DNA of 33,251 nt, taken from assembly GCA_003614675.1 (NCBI GenBank), contig ML002410.1:1-33251 (forward strand), read 5' to 3'. Below, piece after piece: positions 3,001-32,022 of this stretch (positions within the stretch are counted from its first letter, which is position 1; every line of letters begins with the position of its first letter). This DNA comes from Dimargaris cristalligena (lineage: Eukaryota). The position numbers and the translations under genes were made by a program. The notes beneath the pieces are model-generated. The model saw nothing but the letters and a program-made list of their open reading frames with translations. It searched no databases and was not told where the DNA came from.

Positions 3001-3926
3001 CCCACCGCCTGCGTCTATTATTGCCTTCAACGAACCTTCGGTTTGAACGACAGACATACCCCTCATAAAAAAACGGCGTATGCGCCCTCTAAACCCAATG
3101 GCTAGGCTTGGAATATCCGAAGAACAATGTCCGTAATTTTTAAGCCGATCCTGGCTAGGGAATATCATTTAATTGCCGGATATGCATAATGATGCAAGTC
3201 AATAAACGGCCGACTATCCTGGTCAATAAAAGGGAAGGCCGACCGAACCTACCGGGGGTATTCAATAGGGAGGAGTTGATGCTGACCCAGTGGTGGCTAA
3301 TTCAAACTAGACTATGCTGGTCGAGTGTTAAATTAGTTTATTTAATTTAAACAATCAGTACCACTCCCCAAATCTGCCCCTCCATAGTTAAGCTATCAGA
3401 TTTCTACTCGCCGCCCTCTTTTCCAGTATACCTTACCATGAGTAATGGAAGGAACTTGACTATACTTCATTCGAAGTACATGTGCTATACCCACCCCTGC
3501 CCAAATCGGGGCTTTACCAATCCCCTCTAAAACACCATACAATAATGAAATAGGATAAAAAGTGGATACTTCAGCCGCCCCGCGGAAGAAATGGGGAGTG
3601 CACAGTGGGTTTAGCAGGAGCGGATATTGCTGGACAATGCCTGCTTAACTCGCCCTTTTCCCCCTTAAGCTGCCCTTCACTCCTCAACATGCACGGCGTA
3701 CTATACTCCTTCGCACCGGTTTCCGACAAGGTCGACCGATATTAAATATAGCCCATACACTCCCGGCTCCGCTGGGGAGCGTTTCCTTGGTGGGGCCGAT
3801 AAGTCGCAACCGCCTAACACTCTAACCGAGGGTTAGCCTAACTGCCCCTCGTCAAGGACCCCGGTATCCGTACCATCTGATATCTCGACCAGGCACAGTC
3901 AAGAGGCGAAGGGGGGTAGAGGGGAT

Positions 3927-3933
3927 TATAAAA
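3927..3933 (+). promoter_or_regulatory. Putative TATA box of the 7TM gene
   Basis: TATAAAA followed by pyrimidine-rich sequence, about 380 nt upstream of the ATG at 4311. Confidence 0.4.
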
Positions 3934-4310
3934 CCGGGTAGCCTCCCTCGCCTTCGGTCACTAACACCTATTATGGTCACCCCTTCTTTTCATACTACCA
4001 ACCCTAATATTTTTATGCCCCTAACTTTATGTCTTTCCTTATAACTGTAACTATCATACATTTTTTTTATTTTGCAAATACCCATCACACCACTATTGAA
4101 AGGCCCTTTTTTAAATTTTATTATGATTTTAAACCCCTAGTACCTGTGATTTTTTAATACGTGACGAACCCTGGGATTTTTATATTAATTTCCACCTGGG
4201 CCTTTTGTCGATTCGGGCAATACCACCCACAATCCATATTACTTACCGCTCAGGATTATAGGCGCAGTAACAACCCCGAGCTTCTCGATATATTTGTAGA
4301 TAGTTTGAAC

Positions 4311-6871
4311 ATGCTGTTTTATTCTATAAAGAACCTTTTTTTGGTCTCCCTGCTTCTCAGTGCACTAGGCTTGGGCTATGCCGATTTTACCATCAAAGAA
4401 GGTATGATTGACCAGAGCACCCCTACCTTTCGATCCTATAGTCTATTTCAAAGCGCTGAATCGTTTTATCGATTTACTGGCACCATGGTCCCCATCACAG
4501 TCGGGCCCTCCTGTATATTATCCGAACATCTTCACCTTCGCCGGACACCTTCTGCTACCATCGGGGTGGTGAATTGGAAAGAAGCCAAGGCCAATGGCTG
4601 TCACCAAATCAAACAAGTAAGCCTAATTCTCCTCCGCCACGTATTCGGGATTCCTTTCCGGGCTGGATCTAATTGTTACTATGGGTTATCCCCTCCCCCC
4701 ATCCCCTAACGGTTAGCCGGGTGTAAATTTCCACCCGGTTATTATCCCAGTGACAGTCCCAAACTGTGGGTTTGGGGCAGTGGGCCTCCAATTCACACCG
4801 TGGGCGACCTTCATGGAGTGAACCCACTCAATCTCGGCTTCCTATTCGTTTATGTAGGCTTGGGTTTAACTGTGCGACTCTCCCCTTGGTACATAAGATG
4901 GCAAGCCTGTTATTTAGTCGCAGTACATCGCGCATGGATGGACTATGACCATGGTGCATAACCCATGCCAGACCCAAAACCCGAAAAATTCCGCCGTGCC
5001 CTACCACTAACCCAGCTATCTTATTTTTTGTTCCTATTCTGGTGGATTCGAACCTCTTATTAATTGATGGGTACTAGATTGTCCAGCAATTAGCCATCAT
5101 CAAGTCCAAACTCAAGGCCCAACTGCTACCCGATCTCGATGTGGTGATTATCTCGTCCCAGCGCATGTCAAACACGTACTTTGGCGGATTATACTCGGAA
5201 AGGTATGGTGATTACATTAGCGTGGTTCCCCAGAATCTCCGCTTGGTTATGGTAGGGGCAGACACGGGAGATGTGCTTAGTCATATCCTACGGGAGACCT
5301 ACTTTACGTCCAGGGAAATTATTATCGAGCTAACACAGGGTAAGTCGACCGCAGGTTACGTCAAACTTTCGCTCCTTCTTTTTTGGTTCCTTTTAATTTT
5401 GTTCAGATGGACACTAACCTGCTCCAACCCCATATGCATTCCCAAGCATCGTTTCATCCCATCTGTATTTCTCAGGCCAGTGAAATCGCCATTAGACTAA
5501 CTTGGATACCCATTAGCTATTTTACCTAACGAACCCCCTGTCCCTACAATGCCATAATCTACCCACTAGATCCGGGACCGTGGAACATCATGCTCAGGTC
5601 GAACTCCTTCAAAGTTTTACAAATCTTCTTTTTCGTGTTGATGATTTTTAACTTGATTTACGCGGCTCACCAGTTGGTCCGCCTCTTTGCCGAATCCGCG
5701 AAACGGGCCTTTATCCGACAGGTTATTCTGAGCGCCTCATTCTTCTATATCATCGTACTCATCATAGTCCCATCCAACTTAATCAACAGTCCCATCGGTC
5801 TGGTGTTTCAGTACCTGTCGTGGCTCTCGGGATACATCGCCTATTGCCTTTTGCTTATCTCCTGGTAAGTTGGCATAAATATAGAAATTATTAATACAGG
5901 GAAACGGGAGGGGGGGGTAATCCCCACCGGACTTTCACATCCCCATAAATCATGTAGGAAGCCATGCTTTTGGTGATAATTTTTTTCCACCCTATTCAAC
6001 CCCCGCTTCTAATCTATTTCACACCGTCTGTTGCTGGTGGTATTTGCCATGATTCGCACACACCATCATTACCCGCATCGAACTACACCATTTTAATTTT
6101 CTAGGGGACGTATTATCCGGGCTATCTACCGTAAGCAAATTTTTGTGGTCTTTTTCGTCCTCAACTACGTGGGCATGGCCTTTTTTACGCTCATCGTGAT
6201 CATATTGATTGGCGGAGTGGTAGCGGTTTTTCGACCCCTCTTAGTAGTCGCTGCCATCCTAATCGTCATTGTGGCCCCTGCGGTGTTTATACTGCAGGCT
6301 ATCAATCTACTGCTATTCGGGATCCTGTTTCTACGGATGATGCGGTCCATCAAACTAAACGTTGCGGTGTACAATGCCCTTCGCAAAGTAAGTGGATGGG
6401 CCAGGCCCATGGGACGAAATAGAAATATCGAGTGGATAAGACTATGGCTATTCAGAGACCCATTTAAACAGAATTCTAAGATGAAGGCCAAGTAGCAACG
6501 CTGTTCTTGCCATCATCTCTACCATACCCATACTAACCCAGTACCCTCCATTATTTTATTTTCTGAACACACTCCTCCCATTTTAAACGTCGAACCTCCC
6601 CGGTATTCATATTTCGCAGCTCACATTTCTCGCCTTCTTGACCTTTGTTGGGTGGTCAATGGAGGTGTTCACTGCGGTAAGCATAATGACCCGCATTGCA
6701 TCAACACCGACTGGCTACCTGTGTAGTAGCGCCGCCTACAAACTAGCCAGTATATTTCTTTTTGGCATCGTGTTTTGGGTGATTAACATTGAAAACCGAA
6801 TGGAGGCGGAGAACCCAACCCTATCCCAAATCACGCTCTCCGAGCATTCCAGTTCCGTTCCCCCCGCTTAG
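4311..6871 (+). CDS. GPCR-like membrane protein: signal peptide, extracellular domain and seven transmembrane helices, 465 aa, 5 exons
   Basis: Manual splicing gives exons 4311-4616, 5078-5339, 5570-5864, 6105-6387 and 6620-6871. Donors are GTAAGC/GTAAGT and acceptors TAG/CAG. The total of 1398 nt is one open frame ending in TAG and joins five separate ORF-track fragments. It has a hydrophobic N-terminus (LFLVSLLLSALGLGYA), an ectodomain ending at DPGPWN, and then seven hydrophobic segments. Confidence 0.85.
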
Positions 6872-9800
6872 CTCGTTTAAAATTGGATTTAGCTGTCATT
6901 AAAGAGATATAGTCGCTTTAAACAACAAGGCTACTCCATCTAGCCACAGACTAGGGGGGCTTGTTATGGGTGATGAGATGTGATAATATACGCTTAAGTT
7001 GGTACATTGCCTTGCGTCCGATATTGGCAATCAAGCAAACCAAACAAAGATTTTATAATTGTCCGCCTAATGGAGCGGCCCGAATCAGATAGGCTCATGC
7101 TAGCCACTTTCAAGTGCCGTTTTCCAATTCGGAGGGGTACCGCCGATATTAGCAGAGTCACCTGAAGGGACCAATTTTTTCGGTGGGAGGTAGTGGTGGT
7201 GGGTGACCAACTTCCGCTGGCCCCCACTATTGTTCAAAAGATAAAACACCGGGTTTACTTTTAAGGCCCGAATGGAGTCAACCCTGTGATCCATCCCAAT
7301 TAGGGCAGGTGTGGTACATTCAAATCAATGGCCTTAAGCTGGATTCGTCGTCTTACCGACTCGGGGATTGGTATACTGGCCCACCTCAGCCTTCCCATGA
7401 CTTAAGCTGGCTGTTAATGCCAATCATTGAACGTGGGGCCTCTCCAAATCTAGGGACCTTTCCTCTCCTCGGGAGCTAAATCAGGTCGGGAGCAGCCTGG
7501 ATTGGATAAATGAGGGAAGAGGAGGGGGATGTCGGTGAGGGCATATGGGCGTATGAACACATTGACGGACATCCCTCATTCTACGTAATGCCCCCTCCCC
7601 CACCTTAGGCTCGACTATTCCGCGAAAATGACTGGCTTGGTCGAGTACCGCGAGAATGTCCTAATGAGACGGTGGCTTTAGCGTATGATGCCGGCTTATC
7701 TATTTTATAACCGACCAAAACGCTAGTGCGTTAGTGCTTTTATGCACCTGGTCTAACTTGGGTGCATATGTGTATTCACGAATACATCTGCAAAGCCTCA
7801 TTGGAGGCCCTCGAATTCGCCAGGGCACCCCTCCACATCCTCTATATTGGAGTTGGGCGAGGCCGAGGCTAGATAAGTTGAAGCCTGTAGAACCGATTTT
7901 CCCGTGGTTAATTGCCAAGGACCAGCTTTGTCAAAGATACATATAAGCACCGTTTAGTTGTTATTAAACTACTACAAGGCCGGTGAGGCTTGCACCTGGG
8001 CGAATGGGATATGCAGACGTCTCCTCGCCCTAATGACTGATTATGGCTCTGGATACACGCCCTCTCCCTGGCACATATGCGACGCTAACTCGCCAAATCT
8101 AGAAAACCCAATCTATACGGCTGAACCACGGAGGTCTTTGTCAAACCGGTTGACCCATTGCACCTTCTCGGGCTAAGGGTGGACAAAGTGGTTCTGCAGC
8201 GACCATGTCGCCATAGATAGTCGGCTGTGTGGGCCTCTTTATAGAGTCGTTGGGCACCTACATTGTAACAATGCCACCCTGCTGTGAAATGCACCCTGGG
8301 TTCGAAATGTACTAATTCCATTACTCTTTACGGCAACCTTGTGATGGATTTCTATAGTGGAGTTGTTCCTTTAGGTTTGGTACTTGGCGAACACCCAGTC
8401 TCCGACGAGCCACCGGACACTTGGACAAGTTATCTGTTGTTTCTCACACGTATTAACCCTAGTATCCCCCCCCCATGTATGGATATCTGTATGGTATGTA
8501 CTTCTCCAGCCGGAGATTCCTATCTACGACTTTACAATACAATACCTACACTTTACAATACCCTTCTCGTTCTATTATTCCTAATGACCAGTACCGCCCG
8601 CTTTTCACCACAGCTGGAGTGCCGTTTGATTTCCCGTGTTATCTAATGGGCGGGAAATGAGAGCACAAACTTCAATTAGATAACGGAAATTTCCCTTCGT
8701 GTTTTCTCTTTAGTACTATACACTCTGGGCCCTTGATTCGCCCATGGGTTCCATTTGAAATAGCCCACCCACCACCACTCACCGATCGCTAACCCTTTCT
8801 CTCTTCCTCTCACCATCTCCCTGTTTAGACAGTAGTACCAATAGTCATTTTATAATAATCTGAGTTGATTCCCAAGTACAACAGAGTTCTACTTTTAAAG
8901 AAAAATACCATCTAGGGAAGGTGGAAGAGGGCCTTTTTGGGCATAAACCATTAACTACAGTGAATGATTGGTATGCAGCATTACGTACATCTCTGTACCA
9001 AATGACCGGCCTAACGGTAACTGGGTTTGCCGTTATCTATTCAGGGGAAATACCAATTCCAAGAGATGAAATAATTCGTGCAGCCCAAGCTAGTGTGTAA
9101 ATCGAGTTGGCTTTATTGACTTGACCGAATAACAGAAATGAGGGCAGGGGGGAGGGGGTTGAAAGGGAAGGGACAGTTGTATCATCTACTCACCATCTTG
9201 GCCGTTGCTGTTGCTTCAAGTGATACGCAACTTAGATAGATAAACAAAGGATAGGTGGACATGGCAGCGCGATAATGGCCATTCCTTCTTCTCGCCCGTA
9301 CACTAATAACCGCCTAATTACCGTTAATAGACTAAGTGGGAGGCCGTGAAATCTACAGCCGAAGATTGGCCACTTTGGGGGTTTTAGGGGGCAGGTGTGG
9401 TGTCGGGCTGCCAACGTGACGTTCTAGCATTTAACTTACTAGCGAAATATCCCGACAGTCATACAGAAACATAATCTACAGGTGTAGTATTGCGGCTCTA
9501 CAAGGCTTAAAAAATCATGCGGACCAACCCTTATTTCCTTGGCGCATTTTATTATTAAAATAGCGGACTCGGAAATGCGTAGGATGTGGAAAATGGGGGA
9601 GGGGAGGAGGGGGGGTGAGCAGCGGGGGATTGGGATGCGGAAAACCCAAAAGCATGAAAGGAAAGAACCTTTTGGGATAATACAACCGTTATCTCTAGCT
9701 CGGTGTTATCTATCCACTCTCTCCCTCCCTTTTAGTCATATGACCAGGGCTTGGATTCAGCGGGCGAGCCAATGGATGCAACTAACATGTGCCAGTAGAT

Positions 9801-9999
9801 TGGTCACGGGACCAATGACCAAGGCAGGCGGAGACTGCTATTTTACGAGAGAAATAAGCAAAGTATGGTAGAGAGGGAAAAGCGAGATGGGAGGGGGCTT
9901 GAGATCACATTACTACCATAGAATGCCCAAAGATATAGTCCACATCTAGCGTTCCCGTCGTCATATAGGAGACCTCGTGAGGGAGAACGGTTGAGCTCC

Positions 10000-10006
10000 T
10001 ATAAAA
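10000..10006 (+). promoter_or_regulatory. Putative TATA box of the carnitine acetyltransferase gene
   Basis: TATAAAA about 300 nt upstream of the ATG at 10307, followed by a (CA)n and pyrimidine-rich leader. Confidence 0.45.
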
Positions 10007-10306
10007 GGCCATACGACCGCACCATGGCTTTTCCCCATCAGTCACACACACACACACACATACTCACCTCTTCTTATACCATACCTGCTCGCTTGGCGGT
10101 AGCAGTAGCACCTATTTAACTCCTTGGCACACTTCCCACCCTTTCGTATAGCCCTGTAACCCCTACTCCGCTTTCACATTTAACCTACCTGTTTTATTAT
10201 TGAATCCCCCCTCCTTATCTATACATATCAGATAGATATATATTTATATTTTTAGCATTCCCCGTGTTTCGGTCTCACTTTCATCACATAGCATATACCG
10301 CCCACC

Positions 10307-12760
10307 ATGACTGTCCCTTTAACCTCCTCCACCACCCCCCTCCCCGCCCTGCCCCTCCCGGACCTGGCCCAAACTTGCGAGCGGTACCTTTCCTCCGTCC
10401 GCCCCCTGGTTTCTGACGAAGCCTACCAGCGCACCGAACAGGCGGTGGCTGAGTTCCTAGCCTCCGAAGAAGGAGAAGGCCCCGGTGCCGTATTACAACA
10501 CCGCCTGGCCGCCCACAAAGACCGGGTCGACGCCGACCCCGCCTGCCGGAACTGGCTCGAGGCCTGGTGGAACGAATACGCCTATTTCTCCAACCGCGTC
10601 TCCAACTGTTTCTACGTCAATTTCTTCTTCGGTCTCCGGGACGACCCCCGCAACCCTAGTCAGCTCCAACGCGCCGCTTCCTTGACGCAGGCCGCATTGC
10701 AGTTCCGTCGCCAAGTGGTACGCAATGAACTAACCCCCGATAAAGTCCGTACTACCCTGCTATGCATGTTCCAGTACCGCTATTTGTTTAATACGTGTCG
10801 GTACCCGGCTACCCCTTTGGATTACACCCGGCGGCATGAGGCCCCGACTGGTACGCCGGATTATACGCACATTGCCGTCACCTGCCGGGGGCAGGTCTAC
10901 GTCATGGATACGGTGCACCCGGCAGCCACTGCAGAAGAAGAGCCGGTGCCCTTGTCGATGGATGAACTAGCCCAGCGGTTCGCTCACCTCCAGGCCCACG
11001 CCATCCATACCCAGAAGCTGGTAGCAACATCCAACGACCATAGTAATGGTAGCGGTAGTAGCCATGGTATCAGTATCCTGACCAGTGGCACCCGCGACCA
11101 ATGGGCGGCCGACCGTACGGCTCTGTTGGCCGTGGACCCGGCTAACGCCGACCACCTATTCCGCCTCGAGAGTGCCGCTTTCCTGGTGGCCTTGGAAGAC
11201 GAAGCCTATCCCGCCACCCGCGAAGAGTTCGCCCGGGAGTGCTGGCACGGTAAGACCGGCGAGAATCGTTTCCACGACAAGTGTTTCCAGCTACTGGTGT
11301 TCGGTAACGGCCGCGCTGGATTCAGTGGCGAACACTCGCTGTCTGACGGCACCACAGCCCTGCGCCTGTGCCGCTACTTGCTCACTGAGGAAGAAGCGGC
11401 CCCCCTAGCCCAAGTACCGGGCCCCGGAGATGAGGGACCATCAGCCACGGGGTTTGCCCACCTGGCCCTGGCCGTAGACCCGGCAGTGGCGGACCGGATC
11501 CGCCGGGCCCACGTCCGGTTCCAGGCCGAAGTGGCGGCCCACCAAGTGGGCGTCCTGGAATTCGATACGTTTGGTAAGGACCGCATCAAGAAACTGCGCT
11601 GCAGTCCCGATGCCTTTGTCCAAATGGCGATCCAGCTCGCTTACTACCGCATGCACGGTACCTGCCGGGCCACCTACGAATCAACGGCCACGAAGAAGTA
11701 CTCGCACGGACGTACGGAGACGGCGCGGTCGGTCTCTATGGATGCCCTTCGGTTCGTGCAAGCCATGGACCAACCTCTCCGTACCGCCAACGAAAACGGC
11801 AACGTAACCGAGGAACCCGTTGATCGGGCGGCCCTGTGCCAAGTGGCCATCGCCACCCACTCCCGAGCCATTGCCCAGTGCGCCGACGGGGCCGGGATTG
11901 ACCGACACTTACTCGGGCTCAAGTTCTGCCTGCGGGCGGACGAGTCCGTGCCGGCCCTATTCGCCGACCCCAGCTTCAGTACCACCAACCACTGGTACCT
12001 GTCCACCTCGCAAATCTCGGACGAATTAATCGAGGAATACGGCTGGGGCGAAGTGGTCCCCGACGGCTACGGCATTGCCTACATGATCAAGGAAAAGAGC
12101 CTCCACTTCAACGTGGCCGCCCTGGCACCCATGCGCGCCAAAGCCCTGGCCCACCATCTGCAACTAGCCTTGGTGGATATGTACGCGCTGCTCAGTAACG
12201 ACCACTCCCTTCCCCGATCGATGGAAGTGCCGGTTACCATCGCCAGTGAAGACCAGACCATGGCCAACTCGGCTACTTATCTGGCCTCGCTTCTGAGCGT
12301 CCTGGACCAACCCATCCCGGTCCTGGACCTCGAAAAGGCCATGGCTACGGTCCAAGTAGACGGTGAACTGGTGGACCATGCCCATGTTCTTGCCCACCGG
12401 GGCTCGGCCACTTCGTTTGATACGGCATCATTGACCTCCAGTTTATCGGACGACGGTGGCATATCGCTCTCCCCTACCAGCAGCGGCCTTAACTCACCGG
12501 TAACTTCGGAAGCCACCCCGACTACCAAGGATGCCGAATCCCACCAGCACCAGCAACATCATCAACATGCCCACAAGTCGTCCGGCGCCACCCTGGTGGG
12601 CAATAATGACTTGCCGGAAGATAAGCTGGGCGGCCGATCCTCCCTCAAGGTGGAATCGACCCGGCTGACTTTCCTAGAGAAGGTGATGGGTTTTTCGTTT
12701 GAGACCAATTACTTCCGACGGGCACGTGCGGCTGCGGCCAATGCAACTTCTGACCACTAG
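10307..12760 (+). CDS. YAT1: Carnitine O-acetyltransferase (choline/carnitine acyltransferase family), Yat1/FacC-like, 817 aa, intronless
   Basis: Family motifs are present: LPALPLPDLAQTCERYL, NWLEAWW, NRFHDK, catalytic GEHSLSDG, SPDAFVQMAIQLAYY, YESTATKKYSHGRTE, LSTSQ and GWGEVVPDGYGIAY. It has no PTS1 (ends TSDH) and carries a long C-terminal extension, consistent with the Yat1/FacC type. The subtype is an inference. Confidence 0.95.
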   Translation: MTVPLTSSTTPLPALPLPDLAQTCERYLSSVRPLVSDEAYQRTEQAVAEFLASEEGEGPGAVLQHRLAAHKDRVDADPACRNWLEAWWNEYAYFSNRVSNCFYVNFFFGLRDDPRNPSQLQRAASLTQAALQFRRQVVRNELTPDKVRTTLLCMFQYRYLFNTCRYPATPLDYTRRHEAPTGTPDYTHIAVTCRGQVYVMDTVHPAATAEEEPVPLSMDELAQRFAHLQAHAIHTQKLVATSNDHSNGSGSSHGISILTSGTRDQWAADRTALLAVDPANADHLFRLESAAFLVALEDEAYPATREEFARECWHGKTGENRFHDKCFQLLVFGNGRAGFSGEHSLSDGTTALRLCRYLLTEEEAAPLAQVPGPGDEGPSATGFAHLALAVDPAVADRIRRAHVRFQAEVAAHQVGVLEFDTFGKDRIKKLRCSPDAFVQMAIQLAYYRMHGTCRATYESTATKKYSHGRTETARSVSMDALRFVQAMDQPLRTANENGNVTEEPVDRAALCQVAIATHSRAIAQCADGAGIDRHLLGLKFCLRADESVPALFADPSFSTTNHWYLSTSQISDELIEEYGWGEVVPDGYGIAYMIKEKSLHFNVAALAPMRAKALAHHLQLALVDMYALLSNDHSLPRSMEVPVTIASEDQTMANSATYLASLLSVLDQPIPVLDLEKAMATVQVDGELVDHAHVLAHRGSATSFDTASLTSSLSDDGGISLSPTSSGLNSPVTSEATPTTKDAESHQHQQHHQHAHKSSGATLVGNNDLPEDKLGGRSSLKVESTRLTFLEKVMGFSFETNYFRRARAAAANATSDH

Positions 12761-13178
12761 GCGCCGGGATGTATATTTCGTAACTCGCCTTTCTACCTAC
12801 CTGACCCGCCCTTGTGGCATACTTATATTTATATCATCTCCACCCCCCCCTCCCATACCCATGCTGGCTTATTATAACTATTATTCAGAAACTGGTTTCG
12901 CAATCATGTCGTACAGGTTGCCCTATATTTTATATATTTCATTTTCCCCTCAACGGTAGACCCGTGACTATTATTTAGCTAACATCGCTTCCCAGCGCGT
13001 ATTGCGTGTACAATAAATTAAGTGGATAAAAAAAACTCAGTCTTGGATGTCTTGGAGGTATGGAATTGAAGGAGTGTGGATAACGGGGGAAGGCGGAGAA
13101 ATAGAGAACGAGAAAGACTATATCGACGGGAGAGATGAGGGGGGGGGACAATTGGTATGATAATAATGCTACTGTTCG

Positions 13179-14219
13179 CTACATCACAATTTGGTTGGGA
13201 TCAAATACGCCCTCGTCAAACTCGGTATCCGAACCATCGGACTCGGCGCCGTCACTCTCCGCTGCCGAATTATCCCCGCTAGGATGAAGGGCAGCGCATT
13301 CCGAAACACAGTCGAAAATCCGACGCAGTTGACCCGCATCCGCCGGTCGGAAATGCACTTCCGAGCCCAACGGCTCGTCCACTTCCCCGGTCGCCGAACC
13401 ATCGTCACTTTCCTCATCACTTTCCGATGCCAATTCGTCACCACCCCGACTCCGACTCTGTTTTGAACCCACTTCCCCTCCGTTCGTGGTAGATGCCGCC
13501 GTCGTCGTATTGGTTGGTGGCATAAAAGACCCATCAAAAATAGGACGATCAATTTGACAGTAGAGGTGGCCAGCTGCTGCTGCGGGGGTGGTGTCAGCTC
13601 CACTAGGTGATGGTGTATTCGAGGGGCGTACTACCCCATGGAGAATAATGGAGGGGTAGGGAAGGGCTAGACCACATTTCGATGTTTCGCTGTAGAAAAT
13701 CAGCTGACTGGCAGAAGGGCAAATACGGCATATACAATTGCATTAAACGAGGGAGGGGGATGATTCGGTTAGTGATCTTTAAGTGAGATGTGGGTGGGAG
13801 GCTCAGAAGTGAATTAATGAGAGAGATATGTATACTTGTGATTGATGACGAATCCCTGTCATCTGTGCTAGTCATATGGCATTATTCAACGCTGATTAAC
13901 AAGTGAATAAGCACGTAAAATGCACATAATAAACGAGGAAACGCTGCGGACGTATTTTGATGGACAGAAATCAGTGAAATGGTTGGATTTTGTTGACAAA
14001 GAGACGGGGCAATAGTATCATAATATGTATGCCATATAGGTATATCCGGCCTATTTACCTCTCGGCTACGTATAAACTGCCCTCACCCAAAGGTCCACAT
14101 GTGAGGGCCGGCGAAACCGTGCAGGTAATATGAGGGACTTGAAGCCGGAGGACTTGGCCGGCCCGGTCGGGCTGTTCCGGGGTGGTTAAAGCAGGTAAGG
14201 CCTTAATGAGGCGAGCCAT
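13179..14219 (-). CDS. CLNS1A: pICln / Lot5 (Voldacs domain) snRNP-assembly chaperone, about 229 aa, 2 exons
   Basis: Exon 1 is 14219-14059 (MARLIKALP...LGEGSLYVAE), the intron 14058-13708 (GTAAAT...CAG) and exon 2 13707-13179. The product has ICln-type segments GSLYVAESQLIFY, LPYPSIILHG, LYCQI, an acidic tract, and EVHFRP...IFDCVSECAALHP. A further small 3' exon cannot be excluded. Confidence 0.88.
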
Positions 14220-14897
14220 GGTCCACAAAATAGAGAGAGAGGGGGGATGCTGTCCAAAATACCGAGTAGGTCAATGAAGGGCAGTCAGCTGTAATGGGGA
14301 ATAACTACACTGTCAAGGTTGGTGGCAAGGTGGAATGAGAGAGGCTCCGTTTAGTCTATAGTCAATCGCTATACTACGCCAGCCTGATGTGGGGAATAGG
14401 CCGTTGCTGGTGGTGGTGGTCTTCGCTGCTTTCTTGAATTTGCCCTGTTGGTAGTGTTTTCCGCCTTCTCTTTCAATCTCCAATGGTCCAACTGACTAGA
14501 GAGCGATTAACTAGCACTAACACTGGTGGTTGTCACACGCTATTCCTACTAGATGGAGGAGACTAAAGGAGATTCTCTATACCCATTCCCAGCTAGATTG
14601 ATGGGGAAATCTAGTAAGACAGCTTTGCGTAAAAATGTCCCATCCATTTCCGCTCCACAATAGCTTATTTAATTATCATGTGACTAGACACATATCCACG
14701 CCTCTTTATTCAGGCGCCGCTGCCTCCACCAATAGATAGCCGATCCTCACTATCCAGTTTTTTTTTCTGTTAGTGATTAAAATATTTGGAAAAGATTTTT
14801 CAATTGCTGGTTATTTGCAGAGATTTTTTTTTACTCCACGGACCAAGTTAACCGGCTAAGGGGAATATCTTCCCGTAATTCGAGCTTAGCCCCCCTC

Positions 14898-14905
14898 TAT
14901 ATAAA
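14898..14905 (+). promoter_or_regulatory. Putative TATA box of the snoRNA host transcript
   Basis: TATATAAA about 125 nt upstream of the AAG|GTAGGT donor at 15025. Confidence 0.45.
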
Positions 14906-14924: not shown

Positions 14925-15350
14925 TCTGGATTCGACATTCTTCTCTATTCCCATTTGTTGTTCTACTATCATTAGTATATTTCCACTTGACCATGTCGCT
15001 GTATTTATAGCGTTTCCCCATAAGGTAGGTTCACCCATCTGATTCGGCTGTTATGTTTTTCCTTGTTGAATGTTATGGCAATGAGGATGTCACGCTGGCA
15101 CCAATCTGATGAATAGGAACAAGCGATGATTCAGCATGCCTCCATGCCTGGAGTCCTGAGCCTTTACTTCACAAGTAGTTTATTTTAAGTAGGTTAGCAT
15201 CACCCTCTAATCGTGCAACTCTGGACCGTCGCTAATCATCGAGTAATGCTTATATTTTCTGACTTCCAATTGTAACTAGGTTGCACCGGTACTTGTCCAC
15301 TATCTCAGCTCTTATGATTTAATGATCTCTTAATAAAACTAATTTTGTAC
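14925..15350 (+). ncRNA. Putative spliced non-coding snoRNA host transcript (ends approximate)
   Basis: TATA at 14898, donor GTAGGT at 15025, branch-like GCTAAT at 15231 and CTGAC at 15259, acceptor TAG at 15277-15279, AATAAA near 15332. The exons contain only a 5-codon ORF (MSLYL, 14993-15010). Confidence 0.5.
15077..15162 (+). ncRNA. Box C/D snoRNA candidate, predicted guide for 18S rRNA Gm562-equivalent (snR40-like target)
   Basis: Terminal stem GGC/GCC, box C ATGAGGA at 15081-15087, box D' CTGA at 15106-15109, C'-like ATGATT at 15126-15131, box D CTGA at 15156-15159. The guide GCTGGCACCA (15094-15103) is perfectly complementary to the conserved SSU sequence UGGUGCCAGC. Confidence 0.72.
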
Positions 15351-16295: not shown

Positions 16296-17075
16296 ATGCG
16301 TGTCTCCACTTTATCGTATCTGGTTTTCCTGGGCCTCGTGTCCCTTAGCCAAGCCCAGGCTATCCTCAGCCCCTCCACCCAGCCCCAGTTAGTTCGCCGT
16401 AGCCACCTCAATCGCCTCAGCTCCGCCAGTTCGCTTCTCCGCCACCAAATGCGCAGTACGTCCCCTCGCATTTCAACTTCCCTACTGCCCGTCGTTCCAG
16501 GGTCGATTTCCCCCTCCACCAGTTCGACCGGCCCCCGCGTACCGGTAGTCCCGGCGGACTCGGAATCGGAGGAGAAGGTGATAAGCACCTCCTCTTCTTC
16601 TTCCTATTCTCCGGGCCAGTACATGAGTGACACGCATCCCCTCGAACAACCCAGTCTGGGCGCGCTGGTGGCCCAATTCATTGAGGATGAATATAATCGT
16701 CAGCAGGAACGGCAGTTGGAAACGGAGTCCGAGAACCCCCTCCTCCGTAGTAGTAGTAGTAGCTCTCCTGTCCATCCCGGTGTCCAACCCGCGTTGGCCG
16801 CCAATAAGTCCAACAATGCCCAACCTCAGCAGGAGGAGGACCAGCGTCGTCGTCATAGTCCCTGGGTCACCGAAAAACTGGTGGAATACCACCCTAGTCC
16901 CGTACACCCCAAAGTCCAACCATCGTTGGCCAGTTTGGCCATCCAAGACGGGCGCAGTACCGGGCCCAGCGGTAAACCCAATCAAATGAAGTACCATCCC
17001 AGTCCCGTTCATCCGGCCGTACAGCCCGTGGTGGCTAGTGTGGCTAGAACCCTGTCCTTCAACAAATTAATTTAA
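16296..17075 (+). CDS. Secreted Ser/Pro-rich protein with four HPxxQPxL/V repeats, 259 aa
   Basis: Signal peptide MRVSTLSYLVFLGLVSLSQA, coding-like GC content, upstream TATATAAAG near 16125, and internal repeats at the protein level. Confidence 0.8.
   Translation: MRVSTLSYLVFLGLVSLSQAQAILSPSTQPQLVRRSHLNRLSSASSLLRHQMRSTSPRISTSLLPVVPGSISPSTSSTGPRVPVVPADSESEEKVISTSSSSSYSPGQYMSDTHPLEQPSLGALVAQFIEDEYNRQQERQLETESENPLLRSSSSSSPVHPGVQPALAANKSNNAQPQQEEDQRRRHSPWVTEKLVEYHPSPVHPKVQPSLASLAIQDGRSTGPSGKPNQMKYHPSPVHPAVQPVVASVARTLSFNKLI
16620..17042 (+). repeat. Four imperfect peptide repeats in the secreted protein
   Basis: YMSDTHPLEQPSLGAL (from 16620), SPVHPGVQPALAA (16764-16802), YHPSPVHPKVQPSLASL (16887-16937), YHPSPVHPAVQPVVASV (16992-17042). 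Confidence 0.8.
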
Positions 17076-19184: not shown

Positions 19185-22100
19185 TGTGGCGATTGTTTGG
19201 TGTGTATGTTGGTGAATAGGGCGCGGTGGGGGGAGTAGGGACCTGGTGGGAACAAGATATAGTGTGGGTGACGTGGTAAGAATACACGGCCAATATAGGT
19301 TAAATCGAATTGGATTAGCCGGATGTGGATAAGGTAGGCTTATCAATGAATAGTAATGCTACTGGATTATGAGTAGCAGGGAAAAAGAAGAGAACGGATG
19401 GCCATGGGTAGTGAGGGAGGATATATCCACGAGGAGGCAAGAAAATCTAAATAGCAGTGGATAAAGAATACATTCTTGCTAGAAAACCACCCAGGTCGGG
19501 TTGGGGCTCTAGTAGCACGGACCTCTACCTCCCTCCCCCTTTTCCCGTCGTCCATTACCACCTGGAGTAGACACACACACTCCCTTCTACCGCTCGCATT
19601 TTAGCCACTCGACCAGGGTATATACCCCTCGCCCTAAACGTGTGCTGTGGCCCAAGAGGGTGATACAGAAAGGAACCAAAATCCAACGACACCAATGGCG
19701 AGAGACTAGGCCCAAGGTCTGGCGTTCATAGTTAACACCCCCCCCCTTGATGGGCCCATAAGCAGAGGTGGAAGAAAAAAACCAAAAGGGCAATGTGTGT
19801 GTGTGTGTGGTAGAGCGGCGAATAGCCGAGTTGCACACACCCCATAGGAAGGAGAGAACGTGTTGGTAAAGTGGTGTAACCCAGGCAGGTGAAAACGGGG
19901 AGGCGCTACAAAGGAGAACGGATAAATTCTTTATGCGCAATCGCTAGTCTTTTTTTTTTAGGTATAAGCTTTAAAGGGGAAGGGGAAGCGGTTACAGCAG
20001 TAGGAGGGTGTGCTTCAAACTCGGAAATTGTTGACTCCGCCACCATAGTGGGGGATAACAGAAGAAGCCATTAGATACTGTAGGGGCCAGTGGTTAGCCG
20101 AGAAAGGTATAGGGACGAAGAAAAGCCCAACACCACCACCGGTTACGAACGGGAGTACTGTCAGCCCGGTTTCGGGGATTCAGTAACCCGAGGAGGAGGA
20201 GGAGGTGTAGGTGTGTATTTTGCACCGTCCCCTCGATAGCATTGCCCCCTGGCGCCACCCGGAGAGCCCGAGTAAAGCAAATATCTAGCCGCTTTTGGAG
20301 GACAACAGTGCGGAACGGCGAAAGAAGCGGGCATGTAAATAACACAGCGTCTACCTTCGAAACATAGAAAGGAGAGACCCACGGTAGAAAGTTTGGCGGT
20401 AGTTGGACCAGCGAGGTCAGTGCCGGGGTGGTGAGAATACTTACAATAGAATAAGGTCGGTGTGAACTATCGAGTAGCGGGTTAACGAGACAGTGAATAT
20501 ACTCGGGGACAGTCAGTATACAGAGGGCGTCCAAGCGAAGCGTACGGCGGCTAAAGGAGGAGGGTACGGAATGAGACGAGGAGGGATGCGAAGGAAGACG
20601 ACGGCCCGGCCGACTTGACGAAGTACTGAATTACCAAAGGGCTATATAACAACAGAGCGGGTGTATATTATTAATAATAATGATAATAATAAATGTAAGA
20701 AGGGAAAGTAGAGAAAGAGTCGCGACGGGACACGAAAGCGAAGCAGGTTCGTTAGATATAAAAGAAGAGCCCGTGGCTATATGCTACTAAGAAAGAGAGG
20801 GAAGAGAAAGGGAGGAGAACGAGACCTGTAAGAGAGAGAGAAAGGGGGGTGATGATATATGCACAAAATTGGGAATCGCTTGGTAAACGGGAGGGGCGCA
20901 TCTTATCGACGAAACCCTTTTATTCATTTTTAAGGATGCGTGTGGGTGTCTGTATAGTTTAGCCAGAGTTACTCTATAGCCAATGCGGGAGCAGGGATCG
21001 CCGACTGCCCGCTACGCAGTCCTGCCAATGAGTCGTTGCAGAGAACCCCCGTAAATCCTCTCATACGGCATCCCTTTCCCGTTCGGGGCCTCTCCTAGAC
21101 CGTTACTGCATATGACAGCCCCCCCCCGTTGTTACTTCCCGAATCGATCCAGCCTATCATCTCAGATAACAACCCTACGTCGATTTCATCCGCCGCCCCG
21201 TTACTTGGAACCCCAACCTGTTCTACTTCACCCTTCGTTCTTCACCATACAAAGTGTAGATACCGATGCGAAGCCATGTATGAGTAACAGCAGGTTTAAC
21301 CTTCATGAAGGCATTGCCCCCCAAGGGAGGCCCCTAAAAATAAAATAAACTATACATACATATATATATATATATACAAGTAGGCCGCCGTCCGCTCGTT
21401 TCTCCCCTACGTGCCGATCACGTCAATCGTACCTTCATGAATGACAGCCTCCCTTGAGCCACGGCCCATCAAGAAACCCTGGCCGTAATCCGTGGCAGTG
21501 CCAGTATTAGTGTTAGGGTTAGTGTTCTGTAGCCCGTCCGGGACCTCCAAAATTCCAGTTGGGCATGGGGGTATATATGTGGGACCCGTCGTAGTATTCC
21601 ATCCGCGCCGTCAAGGAAAAGGGGAGTCTGTTATTTATCCTTACCCTGCCGGAGTTTATTCCAGTTCTTTAAACCAGAACGTCCCGCACAATGCCCCAGA
21701 GCCACACATCCCCGCAAACAGGGGCTTAGCCATCATCATCATCAACATGTCCGCCCTTGGTCAAGCGAATGTAGGTGGCATTTCGTTCCATCTCTCCCGA
21801 CCGGCAATCATTCCTTCGCATTAGTAATATTAATGCGTATGCGAAGTATACCGCCCCGCCTGAAGGGTATCATCTCATCAGGCCGAATCTGCCAAGGCCG
21901 CTAATGAAATACAAGCGAAAGGCTTAAAATAAAGGGTTGTCGGGGGCGAAATAATGGGGGTGTCGGTCTTTCCTTTTTCCGCATGGAGCCCCCTCTCTAA
22001 TAGGTGGAGGGGGATAGAGAGGTGAGAACCCTTTCTTCTCCAAGGTTAGTGGCGCGACTTCGGAAGACCAAGGATATGGGTATAGGTCAGTCTCGTGAAT

Positions 22101-23096
22101 TATTTAGACGGCGAATTGAAAATGATAGGCCGATTTATATATATGGGAGAAGTTCATTCAGGCTGTATAATGAAAAATCCATTGGATGAGGCCAGCATTA
22201 CTGGTTAAAAATACATTTCCCATATATTCACCCATACATGTATTATGTAAAACCTTATGCAGCTGGTTTGAATTTCATCCATTTATATATATAAAGTAAG
22301 ACCGCCAATTAACATCCACCCTGGTCATGGACAGCAATACTAGTTAACTAAACCAAAGCCCCTCTTTCCCTTCGTCCATGTCTTACCGATGCACGAAGAA
22401 AACCCCACGGTTAATTGGACCCGTCTAATCAGCGAGGTGGCGGTACATGTGCAATATAACCACCACCACACCATATCCTAAGGTTCGAGGGGCATAGTAT
22501 AGCTAATAATGTTGCTGTGGTGCCTCGAATTAGGAAGACACCATTGTAAGGCATATCGGGAAGGAGAGGCAAGTCCCATCCATTGGTACCTATTTCCATC
22601 TTCACTTATAAATGCCTAGTCACCCTCCTCCAAATTTCGTAGAAGTAGGTGGTTGTCGGTGTATTATTAACATTATTATTGGCAGAGGCGGGGTTTTATT
22701 GTTGGATGAACAGGGGGGCCTTGCAATTAGTTGGATCGACAAGTTTGGAAAGATAAGCTAGTACCAAAGCAGGGGTGAAGATTGGCCGGAATAGGACGAG
22801 GAGGGACAGTGATTGTAATTATAAATAAGCATGGCAGCCGTGTACTTTGGTCCTAAATTTATATCAAAAACAGACATGTGCGCAGATAGATTCAGTCGGC
22901 CTGTTTTACTCTGGGGCATGTGTCCCTCCTCCCTGACAATCCACTGGGGAGTGGCTCAAATGGAGCCCCCCAAGTGCCCCCTTTTCTCCCCTTCACCCCC
23001 GCTCCATGTGGATGTCACTCCCTAACACCTCTATACCTATTTTCATCAATGAGCCAGTTAGGATGTCTCAGAGGCACCCCTCCCCCTGACATTCAA

Positions 23097-23119
23097 ATAT
23101 ATATATATATATATATATA
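23097..23119. repeat. (AT)n microsatellite
   Basis: About 11 consecutive AT units. Confidence 0.9.
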
Positions 23120-23641
23120 CAAGTGATGTAGACTCCCCAATGCTCACCACTCATTATACTACATTAGCTTAATGAAATCAGCTACGCTCCTGGTATGAAC
23201 CACGAACTGGCTACAGTATAAGATAAAAGTATCCGAAAATCATTGTTTTATTTACAAGTGTACAAATTAGCCAGTTCATAGGATTGCGGCCCAACGGATT
23301 CGATCCGCTCGGCCCGTTAGTACAGAGTGGCCGGGAACGCATGCCCGATGGTTGTGATGCCATTAGCCCAATTACACTATGCGCCGGGCGAGGGGATGGT
23401 GATAAATAAATGCATTTATAGAGTGAATATATAGATCAAACCAATAGTGCAGAATAAACGGGTTTAGAAGATGAGTTAGTGCATTGCGAGTAAAGAGGGA
23501 TTAGAGATGGTGGATGAGGGAGTTATGGGAATATCAGATTGGAATGAATAGGTTTGAAGATATGGAGGGAAAGGTGGGGAGAGGGTATACTATATGCACT
23601 AGGTAACACCATGTCTATGGATATATGCGCTATTCAATGAT

Positions 23642-24868
23642 TTAGGCCGCCGTCCCAGTCCTTAGCGGACTACCCCAGGTCGAATTACACATGGGACACC
23701 GATTCGGCAAATTACGCATTACGCTATCGGGTATCAGCTGCTCCTCATGTAACCGATGTCGACTGCGACACACGAAGCAGGATGGCGAAGTAGTAGATGA
23801 TGAGGAGGAGGTGGGAGTAGTTTGCGTAGAATTAAGGCTAGTCTGACTCGCTGAGCGGGTCCGCCCAGAATACGTACCATAGTGCCGGCCATGAGCCGGT
23901 CCCCCGCCGTAGGGGGCGGCGGGTTGCCGCAATGAAGCGCTGCGTTGACCACGATTGAGGTTCACGTCACTATGGCTGTGGCCGTTATGGGGATAACTAT
24001 TATGTCGGTACTGATATTGGGACGTGGTCGTGGCCGGTCGGCTATTTCCGGCAGTGGCCAAGAAGGGGCTGGGGACGCCGGCGCCAAAAGGAAGGAAGGG
24101 CGGTCGAACCCCCCCTAAGCCCACGACCGAACCCGGGACGGGGGCGGCGTAGTTAACCCTACCACCACCACTACCGGCGACGGGGTATGGGTCGTAGGGC
24201 TGGAGGGTGAGTTGGGCCAATTCGGACATGAGTGACGAAAAGGGACCCCGGTGGGTTTGGAAGTCCCAAACCGACGACGGTAGTCGCGTGCCACAGGCCG
24301 GGCAGGGTCCCCGCGGGGTGAGGCGGGGGGCCGTAAAACACTGTGGACAGGTGCGGATGCCCAACCGGACCGCTTCACCCCGTGGGCAGCGATTGCAGGG
24401 CTTGCCCGGCCGTTTGTAGCCGGTGTCTTCGCATTTCCAGCACCAGGGCATGGTGGGGCCGCTTTGTTGATTGGACTGGGGATATAAGGGCGCATACGAG
24501 ACTCTAGCACCCTGGCTATTGGTGCCACCACCTACGACCGTGGGCCCCGGCCGGTGTAAATTCAATAATGAAGCAGACCCTTGATTAGGGTTCAAAAACT
24601 GGTTGCTGTAGGAGGGCTGGGCGGAAGCCGGGCGACCACTATTACTGCCTCCGGGGACCGGTCGAGACGGAAGGGTGGGCCGGGCGGAGGCCGAGGTCGC
24701 TCCACTAATATTCAGTGGGGGGGTTGGGCGCGCCGGCCGGGGTGGGGGATTATTCCAACCCTGCGAACCCGATTCAACCACCTGTTCATCGGGGCGGGCG
24801 TAGGGAGTGTACGGCGGCGGCGCTTCGTCCGGGGTGGTTTCGTTTAGTGCCAATAAGTGGTCTTGCAT
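23642..24868 (-). CDS. Proline-rich protein with PY motif and six CxxC pairs, Hua1-like, 408 aa
   Basis: Long GC-rich ORF with PPPY near the N-terminus and PxxP tracts. WCWKCEDTGYKRPGKPCNRC resembles the fungal Hua1 CxxCxxTGYK...PCxxC motif (recalled, not searched). An acceptor-like TTTCCAG lies just before the ATG, so an upstream exon is possible. Confidence 0.75.
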   Translation of the reverse strand: MQDHLLALNETTPDEAPPPYTPYARPDEQVVESGSQGWNNPPPRPARPTPPLNISGATSASARPTLPSRPVPGGSNSGRPASAQPSYSNQFLNPNQGSASLLNLHRPGPTVVGGGTNSQGARVSYAPLYPQSNQQSGPTMPWCWKCEDTGYKRPGKPCNRCPRGEAVRLGIRTCPQCFTAPRLTPRGPCPACGTRLPSSVWDFQTHRGPFSSLMSELAQLTLQPYDPYPVAGSGGGRVNYAAPVPGSVVGLGGVRPPFLPFGAGVPSPFLATAGNSRPATTTSQYQYRHNSYPHNGHSHSDVNLNRGQRSASLRQPAAPYGGGPAHGRHYGTYSGRTRSASQTSLNSTQTTPTSSSSSTTSPSCFVCRSRHRLHEEQLIPDSVMRNLPNRCPMCNSTWGSPLRTGTAA

Positions 24869-25576
24869 GCTGGAAAATAGACGGGAAGGGGGTAGCAGTG
24901 TGTGTGTGTGCGTGTGTGTGTATGCGTGTTTAAGAGCGAGGAGGAAAGGCGTATGTACGAATGTAGGCTATTAAGGGTTGGGAGCGAATTCCGGCTACTG
25001 GTGGACGACGGCGGCACCAAGTGGGGGGTATGGAGTGAGGGGGAGGAGGAGTATTCTTCACACTGGGCCACGACGGGCTCCTTGGCGTAGGACAAAGGGG
25101 GGGGGGGTATGACTATGTTCCGAGAAGCGGCGAGGTCGGTGGACAACAGTAAAGTAAAAGAGGGGGGATAGGGCAAGTGATACGGCACTGGGTTCAAGGA
25201 ACACGTATGCACAAGGCCACAAGCTCAGGGCGTTTGAGCCAAAGGAAATGAGAAAAAGAGGGAATGGGAGAAAGTGAGAGAGACAGGTAACGGTAGTAAC
25301 TGACACTGCCAGACAGGCTCTGGTGAGTTAAATATAGAGCGAAACAAAGGATATAATAAAGACTCAAGGAGTTGGGAGAATACGAACCGAATCAGGCGGA
25401 TCGGCTAGGTATGTGGGTTTTGTGCCAAGCCTGGAAAAGGACAGGCATAAAAGAGTAGAATTGTAAGTGGTAATGGCAATGAGGGTGACGCAACTATTAT
25501 AAAAAGAAAGGGAGAAAGAAGTATTATAGAATAATATAAGTAGTAGAGGACTGTTTGCTGCTGTATTTAGCAGGAG

Positions 25577-30170: not shown

Positions 30171-32022
30171 CTAAAACCCGCCGCCATCAGCGAGATACTT
30201 GAGTTCTTCCTCGGTCGAGGTGCGACCCAGCACTTGGTTACGGTGCGGGAATCGTCCGAATTTTTCAATCACCTCCAAATGCTTGATGGCGTAATCGTGC
30301 CCCATCTTCAGCGCTTCAATCTATGGTGGCAGCATGGGATTAACGATGGTTAACCAGGGCACAGGTACATGTGGACAGAATAGCAGATATATATATATAA
30401 CCGACGACAGGTGGGTGAGTGGGCGAGGGTGAGGGACATGTAATGACGCAGCGGTACTCTAGAAGTTCCATAGACCAGCTAATGCGTGCATAAAACCCAT
30501 GCAGTAAAGGGACACATGCGTTTCAAGGGTTACAGTGTCTCCATAAAATATAGCCCGACAGGTCTTCCCCCCCTTTTACATGGGTGACACACCTAATCAG
30601 TTCAGCAATGATGTCACCATGCCAGTTAGTAAACTACTCATGGAGCATATAGTATTAAGTTAGTCGGGACTTACCGAGGGGTTGGCCTTGGCCATTTCGG
30701 TAAATTTTTGGACAGCCACTTTCTGGTCCTCCATGGCTTCCGAGTGTTCAAAGGGCTATTAGGTCCGAAAAAAATACACGGGATGGCATAGCTGGCTCGT
30801 GGTGAAATTAGCGTATTCCCTCCATTTGGAATATATATAATACATGTCATGCATATTGATAATGGTGCCATGTTTATACCGCGGGGTTAAACTACCGTTC
30901 CCTCCTCCACTTACCATGTAGGCAAAAGTCCGCTCGATGGGGTGTAGTTCCAAGTCCCATTTTTTGGTAACGGCCAACTTGGCCAACGTCAGGGCCTTGG
31001 GATCGGCCTTAAAGGCCAGGGGCGAATTGCGGTAAATATTGCGGGAAAACTGGTCCATGAGGATAATGAGAGACAGGACGCCCTTGGGAGACCCCCGGAG
31101 CTCTTGGACGTACTGGCCCTTTTCAACCACCTGTTCCAAGTCCGCCTGGAAATTATCCCTGGCCGGCCGGCATGCGGAGGGGGTGGTGGTGGTGGTGATA
31201 AAGTAGATGGGTGTGTAAATAAATGGGAAGAAGCAGTCGCTGGCCAATAAAAGGTATACTCTTTTATACAGCCTAACGGATGCCCTGTCTAGCGAGAGGT
31301 GGAGGGGGGGGGGTGATAATCTCACACATGATATAGTCACCAGTGGAGCAAGAAGGACTACTATATTCGATTGGAAGGCGGGTAGGTTGACTTCAGAAAG
31401 GCCATCCTCACCAGAAGATACCCAAAGGCGTAGAAGAGGTAGAGGGAACCTGTCCAGATAGATAAGGCATATAGGACCTGGGTAAATAGAGAAACCAGCA
31501 CAAAGGGCATCTATAGAGTGACACTACCCCCCTGTCTACTTTTCCCTTTATCCCCAGTACCTGTTTCCTACGTACCAACCACTATTGATATATTGTATAT
31601 ATAATAAAAAACCCCCAGCGGGGAATGCATACCTAATCTGGCGGTCTAACTCATCGGAGCGCTGAAACCATTCCATGCGAAAGACAAGGGGTGTGCCAGC
31701 GGCTACCTTGTCGAAGGTCCCTTAAGTCGGTTAGTCCAGCGTGGAAATGCCCAGTTAAAGAAGGCCATCGTTAGTCTAGAATATTATAGCCCGAAATGAG
31801 ACCCCCTCCTTCATAGCTAACCCAGCCACCACCCGATGGGCGGAATCCCCGGACTAGAGTGGAATGCCATACAAAAAGAACAGGGGGAAAGCCAGCTCCA
31901 TTTCTACTTTGGACCCGAGGGGCCTGCGCCAAAGAAGCAGGAGGTGCCAAATATAAAAATGATAGGGGCTTACCATGGAACCAAAAGGACAGTACACGGT
32001 TCTGTAGAGCGAGGGCAGTCAT
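30171..32022 (-). CDS. DUF924 family protein, 203 aa, 5 exons
   Basis: Exons 32022-31974, 31720-31633, 31158-30915, 30755-30675 and 30320-30171 total 612 nt, with all introns GT-AG. Motifs: VLSFWF, WF..SDELDRQIRDNF, IILMDQFSRNIYR, ERTFAYMPFEHSE and FGRFPHRNQVLGRTST. Confidence 0.93.

Follow-up and report, generated by a model that had tools for sequence, protein, structure and literature searches.

A candidate snR40-family box C/D snoRNA gene of Dimargaris cristalligena and its genomic copies at MITE junctions

The 33,251-nt stretch of Dimargaris cristalligena DNA analyzed here (referred to as the window) had been the subject of a preliminary description, made from the sequence alone, which proposed a box C/D snoRNA at 15077-15162 with a guide to the equivalent of yeast 18S G562. 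This locus raises the question of whether the element is a genuine guide, which rRNA nucleotides it would serve, and how it came to share its whole expression cassette with four other places in the genome. Our analysis points to a functional snR40-family snoRNA and to cassette copies moved by MITEs, an explanation that, taken as a whole, we regard as likely. The features on which it draws are collected in Table 1.

Table 1. Positions, in window coordinates, of the features discussed in the text.
Feature	Position	Strand	Basis
Empty ATAT site	14692..14695	.	In the four other copies, right end of 142-bp MITE joined here
Stretch shared with MITE-bounded units C1078 and C360	14692..16538	+	blastn 69-77%; shorter in C713 and C1010
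TATA box TATATAAA of putative non-coding host gene	14898..14905	+	Invariant in 5/5 copies; start site predicted
Predicted 255-nt host intron	15025..15279	+	Motifs kept in 5/5 copies; splicing predicted
Donor GTAGGT	15025-30	+	GTAGGT or GTAAGT across copies
Box C/D snoRNA, snR40/CD_43 (Afu_190, Nc CD43) family	15077..15162	+	Boxes read directly
Terminal stem, GGC/GCC	15077-79/15160-62	+	Read directly; 3 bp
Box C, ATGAGGA	15081..15087	+	One mismatch to RUGAUGA
D' guide GCTGGCACCA, 10 bp to 18S G562 equivalent	15094..15103	+	C15101 is the +5 base
Box D', CTGA	15106..15109	+	Canonical; invariant in 5/5 copies
Box C', GCGATGA	15123..15129	+	Degenerate; both GA dinucleotides invariant in 5/5 copies
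Hairpin before box D	15140..15153	+	Four core pairs kept in 5/5 copies
Box D, CTGA	15156..15159	+	Invariant in 5/5 copies
Branch site GCTAAT; acceptor TAG	15231-36; 15277-79	+	Kept in 5/5 copies
AATAAA, putative poly(A) signal of host transcript	15332..15337	+	Present in 5/5 copies
Intact 259-aa ORF, signal-peptide-like N-terminus, three HPSPVHP-type repeats	16296..17075	+	5' part co-captured, decayed in C1078/C360
Free 142-bp MITE copy	22141..22282	+	ATAT at each end; terminal inverted repeats of ~30 bp, imperfect

Anatomy of the element and its targets on 18S rRNA

Boxes C, D', C' and D and a terminal stem can be read directly in canonical order within 86 nt, in agreement with the preliminary description; the stem that it reported is present, with the correction that it measures just 3 bp, all of them kept in the five genome copies. 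Across these copies the UGA and GA core of box C is invariant (the C1010 version being GTGAAGA), box C' reads CTGACGA in C360, and the D' guide sequence does not vary (5/5). Our chance control returned for the real window one box arrangement, bearing a 10-nt rRNA guide, against 0.19 box arrangements in each of 300 Markov-simulated windows, among which only one carried a guide in total.

The reading that the boxes are a chance arrangement, or that the locus reflects an assembly artefact, polyploidy or contaminant DNA, could draw on the low Rfam scores at the snoRNA and on a fragmented assembly with a second fungal rDNA. It is largely refuted, and we consider it highly improbable, given how rarely the simulated windows produce such a hit (1/300). 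In addition, the copies are diverged by 15-30% and therefore are not assembly duplicates, the same MITE family is found in the copies and in the window contig, and the 5.7-kb upstream flank (9000-14700), with two conserved genes, is single-copy, which rules out polyploidy. On these sequence features, 15077-15162 is very probably a real snR40-family guide for the G562 equivalent.

The assembly (30.65 Mb in 2220 contigs) contains two nuclear 18S genes, on contigs C1293 (1801 nt) and C850 (1981 nt, 54% GC), both of which carry the G562- and G1271-equivalent sites unchanged. Domain A of a U14-like gene on contig C1174 pairs better with the C850 18S (-22.5) than with the C1293 18S (-16.9), so that C850 is most likely the fungus's own 18S. 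The C850 rDNA is long and GC-rich, and the C1293 rDNA probably comes from another fungus. The U14-like snoRNA (minus strand, ~1447-1687) follows a GTAAGC donor and spans ~241 nt, the usual U14 length being about half of that. It was not detected by Rfam, the genome-wide U14 search giving nothing among the 96 of 330 candidates scored; it was found by pattern instead, and only once (two pattern hits, one lacking U14 features by eye; control, 2).

On both 18S genes the best duplex of the guide is at the G562 site (10 Watson-Crick bp, -21.9 kcal/mol), and the D'+5 rule sets C15101 opposite G669 of the C850 18S and G558 of the C1293 18S. The earlier claim that a 10-bp guide to conserved SSU sequence places C15101 on the G562 equivalent thus holds on the own 18S, and the objection that this 18S might lack the complement is answered by its presence in both nuclear genes. 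The yeast numbering given there is confirmed by the C27:G562 and A26:U563 pairs reported for yeast snR40, which have the same register as here (Yang et al., 2015; PMC4344503).

At the second yeast snR40 site, G1271, which corresponds to G1421 of the own 18S, the preliminary description had counted a match of only 6 bp. These 6 bp are found, but they do not stand alone, since a bulge and three further pairs follow, giving a duplex of -14.0 kcal/mol against the -21.9 of the G562 site. For the guide of a metagenome homologue the values are -13.9 (G1271 site) and -24.2 kcal/mol (G562 site). A genome search for a separate G1271 guide, made with canonical D' boxes, gave 21 exact pattern matches (control, 8), none of which combines extended pairing with a box C in a suitable position, so that G1271 is a possible second, weaker target, which would be reached through a bulged helix. 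That a single D' guide methylates both G562 and G1271, like yeast snR40, is compatible with our main explanation, and we offer it as a tentative reading. In yeast, snR40 directs methylation of G562 through a helix with a bulge, 1271 is a predicted target of CD_43 in 67 of 90 fungal members, and no convincing separate guide was found among the 21 matches; however, the G1271 duplex is 8 kcal/mol weaker here, while the Rfam snR40 consensus guide is balanced (-19.1 on G1271 and -20.4 kcal/mol on G562), and the table for N. crassa gives just Gm559 for Nc CD43 (PMC2780460).

Before box D, a hairpin rather than an obvious second guide had been described. In favor of this view, the core pairs are kept in all five copies, and an rRNA duplex search (covering the C1293 LSU in part) gave no D-guide target common to them; against it, RNAalifold does not itself predict the hairpin. 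The hairpin shows one compensatory and one wobble change across the copies, a result reached in 100 of 500 shuffles and hence not above control. The consensus that RNAalifold does return, in which the guide is paired with the 3' half, has almost no covariation and was not adopted. Candidates for a second (D) guide were rejected as well: in four copies they were G-U-rich helices of 9-10 bp with GC-rich segments, and the fifth copy gave other hits. For a yeast-type D guide to 25S U898, the site is present in both LSU genes and the D-upstream region forms no helix with it. Elsewhere in the genome, C11:18326-18341 (+) carries a 9-bp match and CTGA in register for the U1269 equivalent (snR55/U33 type), with TGATGA 43 nt upstream; this candidate has no Rfam support and may be chance.

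Family membership and the putative host gene

At gathering threshold, the Rfam search of the window gave no snoRNA, its sole match being 5S-like. With relaxed limits (E<=10), one of two matches was snR40 at exactly 15077-15162 (14.4 bits against a gathering score of 50, E 4.2), and the Afu_190 model gave no match in the window. The Infernal/Rfam check that the preliminary description had proposed therefore gives a weak snR40 match in the right place, at a score far below gathering. Since this score is not reached, we claim membership by guide, position and target, that is, as a functional orthologue and not as an Rfam-threshold member. A genome-wide Afu_190 search, in which 50 of 1310 candidates were scored, missed even the known copies. 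The 5S rRNA-like match (32752-32870, minus strand, 51 bits) has many broken pairs and apparent C-to-T changes and is probably a pseudogene.

The D' guide is identical to the consensus guide of Rfam RF01498 (Afu_190), and the same guide and D' position recur in two curated relatives, Afu_190 and Nc CD43. Afu-190 was cloned eight times, gave a northern blot signal and was assigned to 18S Gm557 (PMC2377427); Nc CD43 of N. crassa lies in an intron and has a D' guide of 11 bp for 18S-Gm559 (PMC2780460); and snR40/CD_43 is described as pairing better on 18S-562 than on 1271 in most fungi (Canzler, 2018; PMC5824354). Because these data agree, the G562-fitted guide is the common fungal form. The idea that this snoRNA might be specialised for G562, unlike snR40, does not survive as a novelty: filamentous-fungal family members already carry the identical guide, so such specialisation is not new, and G1271 may be served as well.

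A metagenome search with the box C-guide-D' pattern returned 46 stretches, 32 of which (19 distinct) have a CTGA 35-80 nt further on. Of the 46, 27 carry GTACTC, an element found in the snR40 consensus, and 24 are placed between donor and branch motifs; the remaining stretches look like chance. When seven stretches were scored with Afu_190, five exceeded its gathering score. Model R1, derived from 15 metagenome homologues, matches positions 3-36 of 93 only, the C-guide-D' third of each copy, which is the selection pattern itself. The extra-pairing element of the family, UUGUACUC, is absent after D' here; the own 18S (C850) reads GAAUACGA where C1293 reads GAGUACAA, and the exact complement of UUGUACUC is missing from C850. 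Such extra base-pairing elements have been described, with snR40 among those named (PMC3116282). The hairpin before box D and an AGY motif after C' are common to the family by eye only. Given Rfam scores far below thresholds and a homologue model that matches just the first third, kinship outside the guide appears weak. Two metagenome contigs (L082 and L084) hold box C/D candidates of 100-105 nt with the same guide and a common but different 3' half; they score 26.3 and 20.5 bits with Afu_190 and probably represent the family in another eukaryotic lineage.

The snoRNA is predicted to lie in the intron of a TATA-driven non-coding host gene, a setting that the preliminary description missed, as it did the four additional copies associated with a MITE. 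The snoRNA starts 56 nt after the donor, and the joined host exons hold no ORF above 5 codons. In N. crassa, UHG/gas5-type non-coding snoRNA host genes are known, and the distance from donor to snoRNA is usually 41-60 nt (PMC2780460). The putative host gene resembles these in its TATA promoter, its short ORF-less exons and its spacing, and differs in having a single intron with a single snoRNA, multiplied as a whole cassette.

Within the window, the snoRNA is located between a Voldacs-domain gene (minus strand) and the 259-aa ORF, which is followed by a G-alpha gene. The product of the 259-aa ORF is predicted to be secreted and disordered; it has dibasic sites and three (Y)HPSPVHPxVQP repeats and may be a peptide precursor. 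It gave no Pfam family and no Atlas hit above 0.78. Further away, a carnitine acyltransferase gene (10292-12760) has its next-best matches in Dispira and Tieghemiomyces; D. cristalligena is a mycoparasite belonging to the Kickxellomycotina. An ORF at 30759-31523 (minus strand) has a DUF924 domain (E 3e-20), a family named for bacterial proteins.

Five cassette copies and their MITE junctions

A 461-base query identified four more cassette copies in the genome (C1078, C713, C1010 and C360; 76-85% identity), and an exact guide-D' pattern gave the same five loci, with 0 hits for the reversed-pattern control. Over the whole cassette, identity among the copies is ~70-85%. All four further copies start at one and the same MITE junction, which lies ~200 bp upstream of the TATA box, where the window has no MITE. 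This 142-bp MITE family has 880 candidates in the genome, the best 40 of which, when scored, gave at least 44 matches; on its free copies, TA and ATAT targets are indistinguishable.

Two units, C1078 (~3819-8371, 4.5 kb) and C360 (~20006-25000, 5.0 kb), are bounded by inverted MITEs, and the homology between them spans the whole interval between the outermost MITE ends. Their flanks, with 57% and 63% identity against a random-pair mean of 58%, are unrelated. TA is found at both outer ends of each unit, and a 4-bp ATAT duplication is not exactly matched. C1010 has the same left MITE end in a third flank, and in C713 the left MITE is truncated. The unit is chimeric, consisting of window DNA up to 16538, ~380 bp for which no donor was found, and then C1747-like DNA, with C1747 lacking the right MITE; C713 and C1010 continue instead into an APH-kinase-like fragment. 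Its right half does not derive from the window, so that two simple insertions at this locus would not suffice to explain its origin. We read the window as holding the probable parental locus. The G-alpha gene was ruled out as cargo of the unit. APH/choline-kinase-like sequence was located at C713 6056-6343 and C1010 889-1782 (minus strand), within the copies in the form of a decayed fragment, and farther along C1010 as a 289-aa ORF that looks intact. Inside the C1078 unit there are also two other dispersed repeats, one of ~370 bp and one of 140-155 bp, with at least ten genome matches apiece.

Since the units are bounded by inverted MITEs and their flanks are unrelated, the copies probably arose by composite, Pack-like MITE transposition. 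A search for an autonomous transposase partner, restricted to PF13358, returned three fragmentary hits, none tied to MITE ends. The main rival, which we consider unlikely, is that the copies formed by MITE-mediated ectopic recombination or template switching, as in Alu-bounded segmental duplications, and not by a transposase acting on the outer ends. The MITE is abundant and occurs inside several copies too, the unit combines DNA from the window, from C1747-like sequence and, in C713/C1010, from the APH-kinase-like source, and the second base of the shared left end departs from the family consensus. A point against the transposition reading is that both MITE ends are seen in just two of the four copies. 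Nevertheless, the bounding MITEs are inverted, not direct, and the breakpoints fall at their outermost bases. Moreover, the outer-end variant TATTGG occurs at 3 of the 28 MITE ends examined, exactly the three intact left ends, and a tree of 25 MITE copies groups the left ends together (94/82) and the right ends together (93/78), which points to whole MITEs inherited by descent and not to chimeric junctions.

Whether the further copies function was approached through their conservation. Columns of the TATA box, splice signals, box cores, guide and AATAAA are invariant among the four copies in 46 of 47 cases, compared with 307 of 505 columns elsewhere (61%; p 1e-8); some of the 47 were selected with the alignment already in view. 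The guide and D' are invariant in 17 of 17 columns of the four copies, with a background chance of ~4e-4. The whole 86-nt snoRNA is conserved among the four copies at 59/86 positions compared with 294/468 in the cassette (p 0.33), and with the window copy included at 59/86 compared with 263/468 (p 0.03). The co-captured ORF, with 73-74% identity to the window ORF, has lost its ATG in C1078, contains stops in C360 and is truncated in both.

From this pattern we lean towards copies that are expressed and selected. A rather unlikely alternative holds that the snoRNA is real and guides Gm562, while the other four cassettes are mere passengers, silent or neutral, whose motifs were kept by gene conversion and by our choice of motifs. 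It would fit the mosaicism of C1078 and the window copy suggested by a max-chi permutation test (26/1000), by which C1078 looks partly converted with the window copy, as well as the conservation of the whole snoRNA, not above background among the four copies, and the diverged spacer and C' box of C360. Yeast snR40 deletion has no growth phenotype, so extra dosage of the snoRNA would have no obvious value. What the passenger reading does not readily accommodate is the complete invariance of guide and D', the preservation of TATA box, donor, branch site, acceptor and AATAAA over 450 bp with variable bases between them, and the hairpin of the most diverged copy, which is preserved by a compensatory change.

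Proposed mechanism and comparison with known systems

Building on the observed anatomy, complementarity, copy number, junctions and motif conservation, we propose that Pol II would transcribe the gene from its own TATA promoter into a short non-coding host RNA, from which splicing of the single intron and trimming would release the mature snoRNA for assembly with Snu13, Nop56, Nop58 and Nop1. The D' guide would pair over 10 bp with helix 18 of pre-18S and place G669 at +5 for 2'-O-methylation; G1271 might serve as a weaker second target through a bulged helix, and the D side would form a structural hairpin with no guide. As for the copies, a TA/ATAT-targeting MITE would have inserted ~200 bp ahead of the TATA box, and a chimeric unit of 4.5-5 kb would have been closed by another MITE in inverted orientation. 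Moved by its outer ends to new sites, the unit would have given rise to the four further copies, in which expression signals and guide would be kept by selection or partial gene conversion. Speculating further, a MITE pair acting as a composite transposon may have captured a complete snoRNA gene and carried it to four or more new sites, with all copies expressed and selected while the protein cargo decays, and the raised dose might make up for a guide that has become shorter and for the loss of extra base-pairing, on an 18S that is GC-rich and evolves fast.

The snoRNA adds a member to an established family, with a guide already known across fungi, and it extends that family to a kickxellomycotine fungus; the survey of fungal snoRNAs mentions neither Zoopag- nor Kickxell- in its main text. 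Fungal snoRNA families are described as usually having one member per genome (PMC5824354). Here there are five whole expression cassettes, four of them tied to a MITE-bounded unit, and this genomic setting matters more than the snoRNA itself. The locus offers a natural experiment in which, within the same mobile unit, non-coding cargo survives and coding cargo dies. It is also probably a concrete example of a fungal composite transposon built from MITEs, and it would allow a test of whether a guide fitted to G562 can still act on G1271. If the proposed history is true, DNA transposons would provide a means of amplifying snoRNA genes that differs from both retroposition and tandem duplication.

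Compared with Afu_190, Nc CD43 and S. pombe snR80 (tabulated in PMC2780460), the snoRNA has the same 10-nt D' guide 6-7 nt after box C, the same target (Gm557/Gm559), the intronic location (Nc CD43) and, by eye, a hairpin before box D. It differs from them in pairing over 10 bp instead of 11, in the absence of UUGUACUC, in a shorter D'-C' spacer, in a score below the family threshold and in its five copies. S. cerevisiae snR40 (RF01201; CD_43), the best box C/D family match here, likewise uses a D' guide with the +5 C on G562. Its guide, unlike the present one, has an extra U and so fits G1271 and bulges on G562, and it carries a D guide for 25S Um898, to which the present snoRNA has no counterpart. 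We take human Gm601 and Gm1328 to be the equivalents of yeast 562 and 1271. The human guides are separate, SNORD85/SNORD103 for Gm601 and SNORD32 for Gm1328 (PMC11550049), and PMC4344503 numbers the human site G611.

No report of a snoRNA gene inside a DNA transposon appeared among the open-access papers listed, as judged by titles and the starts of abstracts. Among mobile elements, the nearest parallels are composite and Pack-type elements such as Pack-MULE and Pack-TIR, which likewise hold host DNA from several loci between transposon ends, have TA-type targets and contain decayed fragments of protein genes. In the D. cristalligena units, by contrast, the ends are two whole inverted 142-bp MITEs, and the cargo, a whole snoRNA gene including its promoter and intron, remains intact. 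SnoRNA multiplication driven by mobile elements is also seen in the retroposons of snoRNAs (snoRTs and the platypus snoRTE), whereas the copies described here are DNA-level copies with promoter and intron, lacking a poly(A) tail and keeping their host context.
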